This document shows, piece by piece, positions 294 to 59,011 of a stretch of 64,000 nt of DNA. The translations under genes were made by a program, and so were the position numbers. Numbering within the stretch: position 1 is the first letter of the stretch; each line of letters starts with the position of its first letter. The notes below the pieces were generated by a model, which saw only the letters and a list, made by a program, of their open reading frames with translations, made no database searches and had not been told where the DNA came from. The stretch is from an uncultured Oscillospiraceae bacterium (GTDB lineage: Bacteria > Bacillota > Clostridia > Oscillospirales > Oscillospiraceae): assembly GCA_934591895.1 (NCBI GenBank), contig CAKTPP010000004.1:81582-145581 (forward strand), given 5' to 3'.

Positions 294-325
294 GGATTCC
301 GCAGAGCAACCCACAAATCAGCAAA

Positions 326-351
326 CCCCGCTGCTTCGGCAGCGGGGTTTT
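326..351 (+). terminator. intrinsic terminator
   Basis: Stem CCCCGCTGC, loop ttcg, stem GCAGCGGGG, followed by TTTT. Confidence 0.7.
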
Positions 352-354
352 GTG

Positions 355-542
355 ACAGTCAAAAAAGTATTACTTTTTTGACAAAGGGGTTTGCGGCCTG
401 ACTGCATCGCACGCGCCGTCCGCCGTTGGCGGACGGCGCGCACGTTTGCAGGCCGAGCGGTATTTTCTTCGCCGCACATGTCGCCGAAGAAAATAATTGG
501 GTCTTTTTGCGCCTGCGGGCGCAAACTCTACGAGGTTTTGTG
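355..542 (+). repeat. hairpin-rich intergenic repeat, copy A (full length)
   Basis: Contains four hairpins: GTCAAAAAAGTAtTACTTTTTTGAC (358-382), a 13-bp GC stem (412-440), TTTTCTTCG..CGAAGAAAA (463-493) and TTTGCGCC..GGCGCAAA (506-525). Aligns end to end with the reverse complement of 32938-33128. Confidence 0.75.
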
Positions 543-20988: not shown

Positions 20989-21044
20989 ACATGAGATAAA
21001 AAAGCAGCCCCGAACCGTGTCGGTTCGGGGCTGTCAGCTTGTCA

Positions 21045-21128
21045 GAAACCTTATAGAGCTTGCGCCCGCAGACGCAAAGAAAGTCCGGTCGTTTTCTCAG
21101 GCGGCCTGTGCGGCTGAGAAAATGCTTC
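21045..21128 (-). repeat. diverged, truncated copy F of the intergenic repeat
   Basis: Aligns with the copy C core: AGAGcTTGCGcccgcagaCGCAAAGAAAGTCC..TTTTCTCAGgcggcctgtgcggCTGAGAAAA. Ends at the stop codon of the ACT-domain gene. Confidence 0.5.
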
Positions 21129-22123: not shown

Positions 22124-22316
22124 ATGGGCCAACGAGACCCACTGCGTTGGGCTCTCGTTGGAAGAGCTGCGGCTCGCTGCAGCGCACGCGCCGAGCGCGC
22201 ACGTTTGCGAGCCGAGCGGTATTTTCTCCGCCGCACATGTCGCCGGAGAAAATGATTGGAATTTCTTTGCGCCTGCGGGCGCAAACTCTGCGAGGCTTTT
22301 TACAGACCAAACAGAT
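22124..22316 (+). repeat. intergenic repeat copy B
   Basis: The core GAGCCGAGCGGTATTTTCTCCGCCGCACATGTCGCCGGAGAAAATGATTGG...TTTGCGCCtgcgGGCGCAAACTCTGCGAGG matches copy A. The left end differs and carries the hairpin CCAACGAGA..TCTCGTTGG. Confidence 0.7.
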
Positions 22317-22363
22317 CAAAATGAGGCGGCGAGCCATGCTCGCCGCCTCATGTTTCGGTTTTC

Positions 22364-40361: not shown

Positions 40362-40391
40362 AAACGCCCGCCGGGAAACCGGCGGGCGTTT
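40362..40391. terminator. intrinsic terminator behind rny (left copy of a duplicated 30-mer)
   Basis: AAACGCCCGCCGGgaaaCCGGCGGGCGTTT, flanked by an A-run and a T-run. Confidence 0.8.
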
Positions 40392-40592
40392 TGGCATATC
40401 CAAAAGTCTCGCAGTGTTTCGCCGATGGCGCGGCGAAAGAAAATGAAATCATTTTTTCCGGCGACATGTGCGGCGGAAAAAATACCGCTCAGGCTGCAAG
40501 TGTGGAATTTGTGCGCCGTCGGCGCACAAATTATGCGCGCAGCAGACCGTGAGCCTTTTGTCGGAAAACTTTTTGGGTTTTCCGACAGGCTC
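40392..40592 (-). repeat. intergenic repeat copy D
   Basis: Same module order as copies C and E: TTTCGCCG..CGGCGAAA, TTTTTTCCG..CGGAAAAAA, AATTTGTGCGCC..GGCGCACAAATT and the terminal hairpin GTCGGAAAAC..GTTTTCCGAC. Confidence 0.7.
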
Positions 40593-40622
40593 AAACGCCC
40601 GCCGGGAAACCGGCGGGCGTTT
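40593..40622. terminator. second, identical copy of the 30-nt terminator hairpin
   Basis: Identical 30-mer to 40362-40391, as read from the sequence. Lies 10 nt from the stop of the minus-strand gene at 40632. Confidence 0.7.
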
Positions 40623-58736: not shown

Positions 58737-58826
58737 CTTGCGGGCGCGCGCCGCGCAGCCGGGATGGACTGCGCTGCACCTCCGGTCGGGCGGAAGGGTG
58801 AGAAAATCTCCGGTGTCCGGAACGCC

Positions 58827-58960
58827 GGAAAAGCCTCGCAGAGTTTCGCCGCCGGAGCGGCGAAAGGAAATTTGACCATTTTCTTCGGCGACATGTGCGT
58901 CGAAGAAAATACTTCTCAGGCTGCAAGTGTGGAATTTGGGCGCGGAGGGGGCGTCTGCGT
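58827..58960 (-). repeat. intergenic repeat copy E (truncated at the distal end)
   Basis: Near-identical to the first ~110 nt of copies C and D (GCAGAGTTTCGCCGCCGGAGCGGCGAAAG...TTTTCTTCGGCGACATGTGCGTCGAAGAAAATACTTCTCAGGCTGCAAGTGTGGAATTT). It lacks the two distal hairpins. Confidence 0.65.
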
Positions 58961-59011
58961 ACCTCCGGTCGAGCGGAAGGGCGAGAAAATCTCCGGTGTC
59001 CGTAACGTCAG

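Follow-up and report, generated by a model that had tools for sequence, protein, structure and literature searches.

Terminator hairpins are the duplicated insertion target of a hairpin-rich miniature transposon in Oscillospiraceae

Positions 21092-21122 of the stretch of Oscillospiraceae DNA analysed here (64,000 nt, hereafter the window) form the second hairpin of an intergenic repeat, in which both arms of a 9-bp outer stem differ from copy to copy while remaining complementary. The initial annotation took these paired changes for the mark of selection on structure, as a structured RNA or a ssDNA recognition hairpin would show. The locus therefore raises the questions of what kind of element the repeat is and of what keeps its stems paired. 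[quoted passage not shown]

A miniature transposon without genes

We identify the repeat as a MITE, a non-autonomous DNA transposon ~202 bp long and non-coding. In the consensus of 87 copies it has sharp ends and terminal inverted repeats of 15 bp that match imperfectly, 5'-CAGCTTGTCAAAAAA...TTTTTTGACAGTCTC-3', where CAGCTTGTCAAAAAA agrees with the reverse complement of the 3' end, GAGACTGTCAAAAAA, at 12 of 15 positions, a match conserved across 66 copies. The interior consists of four hairpins and zero genes, and the last of these, hairpin 4, forms between the 3' terminal repeat and a further copy of this repeat inside the element. Besides terminal inverted repeats, the features expected of a MITE that were found are a locus-specific duplication, an empty site and a small, multi-copy, non-coding unit; an autonomous partner with the same ends did not turn up in the ~2 Mb of DNA searched. 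A coding region, already discounted in the initial annotation, can be rejected, since the copies are intergenic and differ in length by 1-3 nt, and the sole ATG of the consensus falls within the ACATGT motif in the loop of hairpin 2. Rfam returned 0 matches in the 64-kb window at the gathering threshold and only sub-threshold chance matches, with no family, in E-value mode; searches for tRNA and tmRNA genes and for a solo hairpin-4 mini-element found none. With no ORF constraint, no Rfam family and no promoter in copies C and D, no other class fits.

A search of the 64-kb window with nhmmer yielded exactly six copies, A to F, with hairpin 2 in each at the position given in the initial annotation (Table 1). 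Copies A and B lie in reverse-complement orientation relative to C-F, a point that had gone unmentioned and that leaves the earlier comparison of stems unaffected because the hairpins are palindromic. Copy F, which contains the hairpin under study, stops where a minus-strand ACT-domain gene ends, and the second copy of its target hairpin is missing because of this truncation; its hairpin-2 haplotype, CTCAG/CTGAG, also occurs in 11 copies elsewhere. The orthologue of copy A at locus L023 is complete and has a duplicated hairpin of 26 bp. Copy B, a variant, has another hairpin (CCAACGAGAGCCCA..TGGGTCTCGTTGG) as its 3' module.

Table 1. Copies of the element in the window, with their hairpins and flanking repeats
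Feature	Position	Strand	Hairpin 2, position and outer stem	Description
Terminator-like hairpin at copy A	323-351			AAACCCCGCTGCTTCGGCAGCGGGGTTT; adjoins the 3' end of copy A
Copy A	352-539	-	463-493; TTTTCTTCG/CGAAGAAAA	3' terminal inverted repeat at 352-366, hairpins 1-4; without 5' terminal repeat
Terminator-like hairpin of the upstream formyltransferase gene	20998-21034	+		Target hairpin; adjoins the 5' end of copy F
Copy F	21035-21128	+	21092-21122; TTTTCTCAG/CTGAGAAAA	5' half of the element only; hairpins 1 and 2
5' terminal inverted repeat of copy F	21035-21049	+		CAGCTTGTCAGAAAC
Hairpin 1 of copy F	about 21059-21079	+
Hairpin 2 of copy F (interval under study)	21092-21122	+		Stem as above, loop GCGGCCTGTGCGG
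Copy B (variant)	22131-22323	-	22222-22252; TTTTCTCCG/CGGAGAAAA	Shared hairpins 1-3; no terminal inverted repeats or flanking duplication
Copy C	32934-33132	+	32993-33023; TTTTCTTCG/CGAAGAAAA	Full length; 5' terminal repeat degenerate
Direct repeat flanking copy C	32872-32918 and 33133-33184			Imperfect, 47-52 bp; includes part of a terminator hairpin
Upstream target copy at copy D	40362-40391			RNase Y terminator hairpin AAACGCCCGCCGGGAAACCGGCGGGCGTTT
Copy D	40392-40592	+	40452-40482; TTTTTTCCG/CGGAAAAAA	Full length, 201 bp; hairpin 3 of AATTTGTGCGCC type
Downstream target copy at copy D	40593-40622			30/30 bases identical to the upstream RNase Y hairpin
Copy E	58829-58950	+	58879-58909; TTTTCTTCG/CGAAGAAAA	Truncated beyond the 5' arm of hairpin 3; no terminal repeats; one change in the hairpin-2 loop
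Direct repeat bracketing copy E, left	58778-58825	+		48 bp; not a hairpin duplication
Direct repeat bracketing copy E, right	58960-59007			48 bp; not a hairpin duplication

No autonomous parent or transposase was found in the ~2 Mb of fetched DNA. Orphan pairs of terminal repeats, sought in the 97 loci of the genome scan and the window, were limited to one short deleted derivative, and clustering of multi-copy ORFs over the loci returned orthologous loci only. With E. coli IS30 InsI1, IS5 and an rve protein as queries, tblastn gave no match in the window or in any locus (~2 Mb), while the matches of IS30 to plasmids were dominated by enterobacterial sequences and were uninformative. Partial nhmmer matches proved to be divergent, deleted or contig-end copies, none of which extends into genes. 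Looking for duplicated palindromes around larger inserts led only to a Mu-like phage region with operator-like palindromes, and a 50-kb sample of the 860-kb replicon of Vescimonas fastidiosa contained five copies and no transposase. Matches of viral contigs to the 14-nt 5' end were dismissed as chance, two of them (L144, L152) lying within a phage terminase and portal region and a further one (L156) being a chance match. Assemblies of metagenome-derived genomes (MAGs) usually break at IS copies, and the missing partner is therefore weak evidence against the proposed element. A further point against it is that the terminal repeat is both short and imperfect.

Insertion into terminator hairpins

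The element inserts into the palindromic hairpin of an intrinsic terminator at a gene 3' end, in either orientation. Insertion is centred on the dyad, and the entire hairpin (24-36 bp) is then present on either side. A locus-specific direct match with a score of at least 15 abuts both ends in 49 of 87 copies, compared with 1 of 400 controls with mismatched flanks. The clean duplications (n = 39) are 24-36 bp long, with a mean of 31.4 bp; their left and right offsets mirror one another around the palindrome centre, and in 24 of the 39 both edges of the duplication lie at most 2 nt from the edges of the palindrome. A gene 3' end is the location of 56 of the 59 copies that were scored for it, and relative to the neighbouring genes 28 copies are convergent, 19 antisense and 9 sense. 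For one locus, that of copy D, a filled and an empty site can be compared directly: the window has hairpin, element and hairpin in succession 3' of RNase Y, and the related strains L236 and L249 show the same flanks with one hairpin and no element. Within the species this locus showed no polymorphism, the element being present in all 10 contigs with identical RNase Y. That the repeat is mobile, ends in terminal inverted repeats and duplicates terminator hairpins upon insertion had been overlooked in the initial annotation.

We propose a model in which a transposase supplied in trans would cut both strands symmetrically at the base of the target palindrome, which it probably reads as a hairpin or cruciform, and in which repair of the gaps following these cuts would duplicate the hairpin. 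IS1630, of the IS30 family, is reported to act in such a manner. As the duplication comprises the whole palindrome and is variable in length and sequence, structure-reading by a transposase is directly testable, with thousands of natural insertions that could be used for this.

Paired changes in the stems

The complementarity described for the 9-bp outer stem of hairpin 2 holds in full, with 54 of 54 pairs complementary over the six window copies and four different stem sequences among them; the chance expectation for the 31-mer is 0.00. Hairpin 1 also switches as had been described, from TTTGCGCC/GGCGCAAA in copies A and B to TTTCGCCG/CGGCGAAA in C, D and E, with copy F close to the A/B type, and the sequence difference in the long stem between copies A and D likewise stands. 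Among 86 unique copies elsewhere, from ~35 Oscillospiraceae genomes, 764 of 774 cells in the outer stem of hairpin 2 are Watson-Crick pairs, the remainder being 4 G:T and 6 A:C, and at least 10 fully paired haplotypes were counted, in a genome scan whose pattern held the outer TTTT/AAAA and the loop constant and left only the inner five pairs free to vary.

For the 66 aligned copies, pairing over 50 pairs in hairpins 2, 3 and 4 amounts to 95.6% of cells, compared with 89.9% after shuffling, a level that 0 of 500 shuffles reach; in controls with a slid register, it is only 35-50%. The covariation score is 0.179 versus 0.090 in shuffles, the comparison being shuffle-based with statistics that ignore phylogeny. 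Changes on both sides are seen in 25 of the 50 pairs (12.2 ± 1.5 in shuffles). The concerted changes of the two arms are thus genuine, and there are many of them. Nor can they be traced to just two subfamilies, since the types of hairpins 1, 2 and 3 occur in nearly all combinations. They do not establish selection for a structured RNA or a ssDNA recognition hairpin, the conclusion that had been drawn from them. Covariation of the kind expected of a structured RNA is present; membership in a curated Rfam family is not.

As to what keeps the stems paired, we lean modestly towards folded DNA over folded RNA. The palindrome arms may be copied from each other in DNA by template switching, which would keep the stems complementary and would also flip loops; lineages still able to fold would at the same time be the lineages still spreading, and stems would be retained in this way. 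In hairpin 3, one and the same stem can carry the loop in either orientation (TTT/AAA, TTG/CAA, TCC/GGA). Each of these flips would require three substitutions if made by point mutation, and the flips point to DNA-level copying or inversion between the arms, a process that can yield concerted arm changes without selection. An interaction of the arms in DNA is also indicated by a flipped loop in one duplicated target hairpin, that of L016, and by G:T and A:C numbers that are balanced in hairpins 2 and 4.

An unlikely alternative is that the arm changes are purely mutational, arising by quasipalindrome correction through replication template switching or by arm-to-arm conversion, with no structural selection involved. 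Template-switch correction of quasipalindromes is established in E. coli. Apart from the hairpin-3 loops, it could account for the flipped loop in the duplicated target hairpin of L016, for private mutations that are at least as frequent in stems as in linkers, and for the symmetry of G:T and A:C in hairpin 2 (2 vs 4; 4 vs 11 in hairpin 4), where, as in hairpin 4, the 66 copies show no G:T excess and no strand bias. However, a tandem G:T, a G:G mismatch and the apex bulge of hairpin 2 persist across genera, and the imperfections retained in hairpin 3 weigh against efficient template switching, because switching should have erased them. Hairpin positions and the sequences of loops and linkers are moreover kept between genera, which needs some constraint. 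Our own explanation has to face an interior that looks more constrained than would be expected of a passive MITE interior, with 0.65-0.73 private variants per column compared with 1.67 in the 5' terminal repeat; between orthologous pairs, element identity is 0.91-0.99, similar to that of the coding flanks. In several species the interior also occupies conserved positions while lacking terminal repeats, which suggests a role other than transposition.

It is quite unlikely, in our estimation, that hairpins 1-3, in line with the initial annotation, constitute a structured RNA without coding function (a small RNA or part of a 3' or 5' UTR) that is kept by selection on the RNA fold, with the transposon ends serving only as a vehicle. 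The strong covariation, the conserved loop of hairpin 2 on its variable stem and an interior more conserved than the 5' terminal repeat are consistent with such an RNA. So are the variants lacking terminal repeats that occupy conserved loci, such as the one 5' of recO in three MAGs and those directly 5' of ribosome-binding sites. The tandem T:G/G:T at the base of hairpin 3, a tandem G:U in RNA, persists in 62-64 of 66 copies, with C-G/A-U in its place in L005 and L025, and G:T exceeds A:C in this hairpin by 180 to 23 overall and, when the conserved columns are set aside, by about 40 to 18, as counted from the per-column table. When both strands are folded, the plus strand is slightly better in 51 of 86 copies, with z of -6.95 (plus) and -3.75 (minus) for copy C. 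However, the strand-specific G:U signal is restricted to hairpin 3 and absent from hairpins 2 and 4, G:U totals on the two strands are similar (396 vs 447), and the element is often found in either orientation to its neighbouring genes. Copies C and D yielded no sigma-70-like promoter, no Rfam family matches, the genes downstream of element copies are unrelated among themselves, and flipped loops would be unexpected in a selected RNA.

More doubtful still are two readings that would break new ground. In one, transposition would be structure-guided in a way new for any MITE, the enzyme reading DNA hairpins or cruciforms instead of a sequence, cutting any terminator palindrome at its base and also needing the element's covarying hairpins, with their conserved loop GCGACATGTGCGG, as folded recognition modules; in the other, the conserved interior would be a mobile structured RNA that moves from one terminator to the next and has been domesticated at some loci (upstream of recO, and in leaders carrying a ribosome-binding site). 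We retain the MITE with DNA-level copying of its arms as the working model.

Related elements and consequences for the host genomes

The closest known behaviour is that of IS1630 (IS30 family), and the closest known structured element is bcr1. Like the element, IS1630 of Mycoplasma fermentans and ISMhom-1 of M. hominis target and duplicate variable, terminator-like palindromes at gene 3' ends. IS1630 is described as targeting and duplicating inverted repeats, with duplications of 16-26 bp (PMC3317919), and the element, too, inserts into an inverted repeat and duplicates it, with longer duplications of 24-36 bp. ISMhom-1 is described as similar, with insertion-site-specific repeats that leave the flanking ORFs intact (PMC7648426). 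The paper on the IS30-bounded 'IScream' phages (PMC12823448) contains no target-site information. Both insertion sequences are autonomous, measure 1.2-1.4 kb and have 27-bp terminal repeats and a transposase gene, whereas the element is ~200 bp, gene-less and bounded by imperfect 15-bp repeats; its hosts are Clostridia instead of Mycoplasma, and no IS30-like partner was seen in the ~2 Mb searched. The bcr1 repeat (group A of the bcr repeats, Bacillus cereus group) is a mobile element of ~155 bp in which predicted stem-loops are kept by compensatory changes (PMC3184786). It resembles the element as a small, non-coding, mobile, intergenic Firmicutes repeat with compensatory stem changes, and differs in having 5-bp direct repeats and in being reported as transcribed, while the element has whole-hairpin duplications and flipping loops.

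Like the element, Correia/NEMIS, ERIC, RUP and QMITE have terminal inverted repeats, duplicate their target, lack ORFs, lie between genes in high copy number and are predicted to fold stably (PMC10969869, PMC3184786). In contrast, classical MITEs make 2-9-bp duplications and their fold is mostly terminal-repeat pairing, where the element has four independent covarying hairpins and duplicates a target defined by structure. REP, BIME and REPIN sequences also populate gene 3' ends as GC-rich extragenic palindromes in high copy number, but lack terminal inverted repeats and duplications and carry a GTAG or CGTC tag (PMC3733652). A REP/BIME-type sequence or REPIN mobilised by a RAYT transposase (TnpA-REP), or else a palindrome-associated element of the IS200/IS605 type, perhaps with a guide RNA, would explain a high-copy, hairpin-rich intergenic repeat with the consensus GTAG immediately 5' of hairpin 1, yet is very improbable: the tag is unconserved (GCAG, GCAG, GCAG, GTAG and ATAG in window copies), four different hairpins over ~200 bp contrast with a palindromic unit of 20-40 bp, and the element has both the terminal repeats and the target duplication that are absent from REP/BIME sequences and from the subterminal-hairpin organisation of IS200/IS605.

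CRISPR repeat duplication leaves an insert flanked by two ~30-bp, often palindromic copies. By analogy only, Cas1-Cas2 resembles the element in placing its insert between two such copies through staggered end cuts; unlike CRISPR, the element takes any terminator hairpin as target and is bounded by terminal inverted repeats, and cas genes were not observed. A Cas1-like integrase of the casposase type, which in place of a DDE transposase would cut both ends of the palindromic repeat as in spacer acquisition, could produce 24-36-bp duplications with palindrome symmetry and variable sequence akin to CRISPR repeat duplication, but is hardly credible, as known casposons have 14-15-bp duplications and long terminal repeats, unlike the element, and no enzyme was identified in the ~2 Mb of DNA searched. 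The IS30-family precedent documented for IS1630 and ISMhom-1 (PMC3317919, PMC7648426) also argues against such an enzyme.

The family is widespread and highly repeated in Oscillospiraceae, with six copies in the 64-kb window and at least 97 loci in the scan, and as far as we found it is apparently unannotated, with no Rfam entry and no paper found that links MITEs to these taxa. Flipped loops reveal a DNA-level route to the same compensatory pattern, and compensatory changes in palindromic mobile repeats should therefore be taken with caution, since they do not necessarily reflect RNA structure under selection. At a density of ~1 element per 10 kb in these abundant human-gut bacteria, every insertion remodels a gene 3' end by placing two terminator hairpins around a 200-bp hairpin cassette. 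Because gene 3' ends are rebuilt in this manner, the family is likely to affect termination, 3' UTRs and recombination in these genomes.

The element and its relatives

Six copies of the element could be confirmed in the window by direct reading, with the stems as initially described, and a profile search returned exactly these six. Hairpin 2, the 31-nt central hairpin, was recovered in copies A, B, C and E with at most three mismatches (0.00 matches expected by chance in the 31-nt search), and its more divergent versions in D and F were identified by direct reading. Copies A and B are inverted relative to C–F, a point on which the initial annotation was silent and which is harmless to its comparison because the hairpins are palindromic. 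Copies E and F are truncated. A 48-bp direct repeat (CCTCCGGTCG.GCGGAAGGG.GAGAAAATCTCCGGTGTCCG.AACG) flanks E; it has no other occurrence in the window or any fetched locus and is no hairpin duplication.

Alignment of 87 unique full-length copies with flanks gave sharp boundaries and a 202-bp consensus with the ends 5'-CAGCTTGTCAAAAAA...TTTTTTGACAGTCTC-3', an imperfect 15-bp terminal inverted repeat matching at 12 of 15 positions. The final hairpin (GTCAAAAAAGTAATACTTTTTTGAC) forms by pairing of the 3' terminal repeat with a further copy of the terminal repeat inside the element. No coding constraint was detected, in agreement with the initial view of the element as non-coding; Rfam gave no match to it, and no promoter-like site was found in copies C or D. 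A pattern fixing only the hairpin 2 loop and the outer TTTT/AAAA, run against a single genome from each species, matched at least 97 loci. Among the matches listed, the sources are nearly all gut Oscillospiraceae or Clostridiales MAGs and isolates, with UMGS596, SQ_MAG_9, ERR1600716-bin.16, Pseudoflavonifractor sp. An85, Intestinimonas, Lawsonibacter, Dysosmobacter and Butyricicoccus as hosts, of which ERR1600716-bin.16 (91–96% identity) and SQ_MAG_9 (90%) are closest to the window. A full element typical of Oscillospiraceae also lies on L057 (SFOB01000196.1), a 3.3-kb contig that was placed, probably wrongly, in a Treponema sp. bin. The 860-kb 'plasmid' pMM35_01 of Vescimonas fastidiosa holds 22 matches to the element; the genes it encodes, among them rpoB, rpoC, recA, cysS and gap (L311, NZ_AP023416.1 510001–560000), suggest a chromid or second chromosome.

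The family is mosaic. In a second class hairpins 1–3 are kept, a different 3' hairpin (CNAACGAGAACC-CAGCGAAGC-GGTTCTCGTTNG) replaces the terminal-repeat hairpin, and both terminal inverted repeats and flanking duplication are absent. Another class is formed by three SQ_MAG_9 copies with the end ..AAACGAG.CT.C.GAAAGGAG, each lying some 8 nt ahead of the start codon (ATG) of an M16 peptidase, Lgt or thiamin pyrophosphokinase gene (Pfam assignments); the genes are unrelated, and the end of the element seems to provide their ribosome-binding site. Upstream of recO, three MAGs/isolates (Candidatus Enterenecus faecium, Pseudoflavonifractor sp. An85 and MGYG-HGUT-00339) share the position of a copy that lacks terminal repeats; the 96% identity among the three elements is level with that of the flanking coding sequence. 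In an 85-bp derivative, an internal deletion has removed hairpins 2 and 3 and left hairpin 1 between the 5' terminal repeat and the terminal-repeat hairpin. A divergent relative on an unannotated gut 'phage' contig (MT838551.1) has other sequence in place of hairpin 2, and its hairpin 3 outer stem is changed on both arms (GCTCCGC...GCGGAGC).

Positions of element copies and associated features (L numbers denote loci or contigs from other genomes or metagenomes)
Feature	Locus	Position
Hairpin 2, copy A (minus strand)	window	463-493
Hairpin 2, copy B (minus strand)	window	22222-22252
Hairpin 2, copy C (plus strand)	window	32993-33023
Hairpin 2, copy D (plus strand)	window	40452-40482
Hairpin 2, copy E (plus strand)	window	58879-58909
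Hairpin 2, copy F (plus strand)	window	21092-21122
Hairpins flanking copy D	window	40362-40391, 40593-40622
48-bp repeat flanking copy E	window	58778-58825, 58960-59007
Second class, copy B	window	22131-22323
Second class	L035	3396-3589
Second class	L075	2313-2527
Second class	L040	4973-5164
Second class	L087	4367-4581
GAAAGGAG-ending copies	L053	5704-5889, 2742-2950
GAAAGGAG-ending copy	L033	3003-3221
Copy upstream of recO	L004	3048-3269
Copy upstream of recO	L009	5014-5234
Copy upstream of recO	L019	584-805
Internally deleted derivative	L083	336-415
Divergent relative, 'phage' contig	L098	2060-2270
Second element end after hairpin	L081	5808-6070
Copy flanked by target hairpins with inverted loop	L016	2137-2336

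Covariation in the stems

The outer stem of hairpin 2 had been described as variable yet complementary, which holds for 54/54 window pairs over four stem sequences. Hairpin 1 likewise switches as a unit: copies A, B and F carry the GCGCC type and copies C, D and E the CGCCG type. The difference between the long stems of copies A and D was also confirmed. Over 86 copies, the 774 cells of the hairpin 2 outer stem comprise 764 Watson-Crick, 4 G:T and 6 A:C, and the fully paired haplotypes number at least ten (CTTCG/CGAAG, CTCCG/CGGAG, CTCAG/CTGAG, TTCCG/CGGAA, CTCCA/TGGAG, TTCCA/TGGAA, CCCAG/CTGGG, TTGCG/CGCAA, CCGCC/GGCGG, TTGTC/GGCAA), to which Vescimonas adds CTCTC/GAGAG and TCACC/GGTGA. For hairpin 1, perfect pairing over 8 bp or more was seen in 66 of 85 copies, and these stems come in no fewer than nine sequences.

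For a formal count, 50 pairs from hairpins 2–4 of the 66 aligned copies with terminal repeats were compared with 500 shuffles. Observed against shuffled values were 95.6% and 89.9% for cells paired, 25 and 12.2 ± 1.5 for pairs changed on both sides, 174 and 47.7 for cells changed on both sides, and 0.179 and 0.090 for the covariation score, with 0/500 shuffles matching the observed value on any measure; structures slid by 1–3 columns paired in only 35–50% of cells. Variants of hairpins 1, 2 and 3 were found in nearly all combinations and therefore do not trace to two subfamilies related by one conversion event.

Duplication of target hairpins

A locus-specific direct match (score ≥15) abuts both ends in 49/87 copies, compared to 1/400 for mismatched flanks. 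What is duplicated is an intrinsic-terminator hairpin: a GC-rich palindrome preceded by an A-run and followed by a T-run. In 39 clean cases the duplication measures 24–36 bp (mean 31.4) and its left and right edges mirror each other about the palindrome dyad; in 24 of them, neither edge is more than 2 nt away from that of the palindrome. Insertion is centred on the palindrome, with a duplicated length that roughly tracks palindrome length, and occurs in both orientations with precise ends. Copies are located at gene 3' ends: neighbours of the 59 scored copies with terminal repeats are convergent in 28, tandem in 28 (19 antisense, 9 sense) and divergent in only 3, and values are similar for all copies.

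Copy D lies downstream of RNase Y between two identical 30-bp hairpins. Two metagenome contigs (L236 and L249) display the same RNase Y end and downstream flank with one hairpin and no element, so that the window contains a 235-bp insertion of one hairpin copy plus the element. This insertion is present in 10/10 contigs encoding identical RNase Y and is therefore fixed in the window's lineage. At loci whose RNase Y is 98% identical to that of the window (L231–L257), at least three arrangements follow directly after the same terminator hairpin; the intergenic region downstream of RNase Y is a rearrangement hot spot. At L081, a second element 5' end (ACAGCTTGTCAAAAACCTTGTAGCC...) begins directly after the downstream hairpin copy, which looks like a tandem insertion with one hairpin common to both.

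We propose a model in which an in-trans transposase would bind the terminal repeats and attack both target strands at symmetric positions at the palindrome base. In a cruciform target, the two attack positions would adjoin across the four-way junction, which would explain the target-dependent 24–36-nt stagger, and gap filling would then duplicate the target hairpin. No parent transposase was found in about 2 Mb of fetched DNA, which is weak evidence because the contigs of MAGs tend to end at IS copies. IS1630-type elements are reported to handle their targets similarly, with IS1630 as documented precedent, and ISMhom-1 behaves like IS1630 (PMC7648426). REP/BIME or IS200/IS605-type identity was rejected, since the element has terminal repeats and a duplication and GTAG is not conserved.

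Maintenance of the stems

The initial annotation read the matched arm changes as selection on a structured RNA or ssDNA hairpin. This reading is supported in part, but selection is not the necessary cause of the changes, as loop inversions point to a DNA-level route. The hairpin 3 apical loop reads either way round on an unchanged stem (TTT in 10 copies and AAA in 3, TTG in 3 and CAA in 2, TCC in 18 and GGA in 1, AAC and GTT), as does the hairpin 4 loop (AAT and ATT). At L016 the duplicated target hairpins share their stem with the loop reverse-complemented (ATCC vs GGAT); at the orthologous locus L013 both loops have the same orientation. Inversion of a three-base loop is far more likely to result from arm-to-arm templating or inversion between arms than from three point mutations, and either process would also yield matched arm changes without selection. 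The mechanism underlying arm templating would be quasipalindrome correction by template switching. Further signals are strand-symmetric or at DNA level: A:C mismatches are as numerous as G:T in hairpins 2 and 4, G:U counts in minimum-energy folds are equal between strands (396 vs 447), orientation relative to transcription is not fixed, copies C and D yielded no promoter, and stems are not depleted of private variants (0.73 per column vs 0.65 in linkers).

Constraint, possibly on a plus-strand RNA, is suggested by other features. The tandem T:G/G:T at the hairpin 3 base (CGTGCG opposite CGTGCG) is retained in 62–64 of 66 copies, and in L005 and L025 it is replaced by C-G/A-T, thus these columns do pair. 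Outside them, hairpin 3 still shows more G:T than A:C (about 40 vs 18, as counted from the per-column table). Folding both strands of copy C gave -96.6 kcal/mol (z -6.95) for plus vs -82.4 (z -3.75) for minus; the plus strand is more stable in 51/86 copies, with a mean advantage of 2.2 kcal/mol. The interior, with 0.65–0.73 private variants per column, is kept better than the 5' terminal repeat with 1.67. The hairpin 2 loop retains 11 or more of its 13 bases in copies outside the search-pattern selection, and a G:G mismatch and bulge at the hairpin 2 apex are left uncorrected.

In our reading, DNA-level arm-to-arm copying and some selection on architecture both act, where copying would supply the concerted stem changes and selection would hold the hairpin architecture. 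As a small mobile repeat in which compensatory changes occur, the element resembles bcr1 of Bacillus cereus (PMC3184786). Prokaryotic MITEs were recently reviewed with short duplications only and no terminator-duplicating element among those listed (PMC10969869), and no paper linking MITEs to Oscillospiraceae was found in the literature searched. The element is a structured MITE with a hairpin-length, structure-defined target duplication, unusual in its target mechanism and conserved interior, and selection on its architecture most likely works via its continued spread, and possibly via a host or RNA function.
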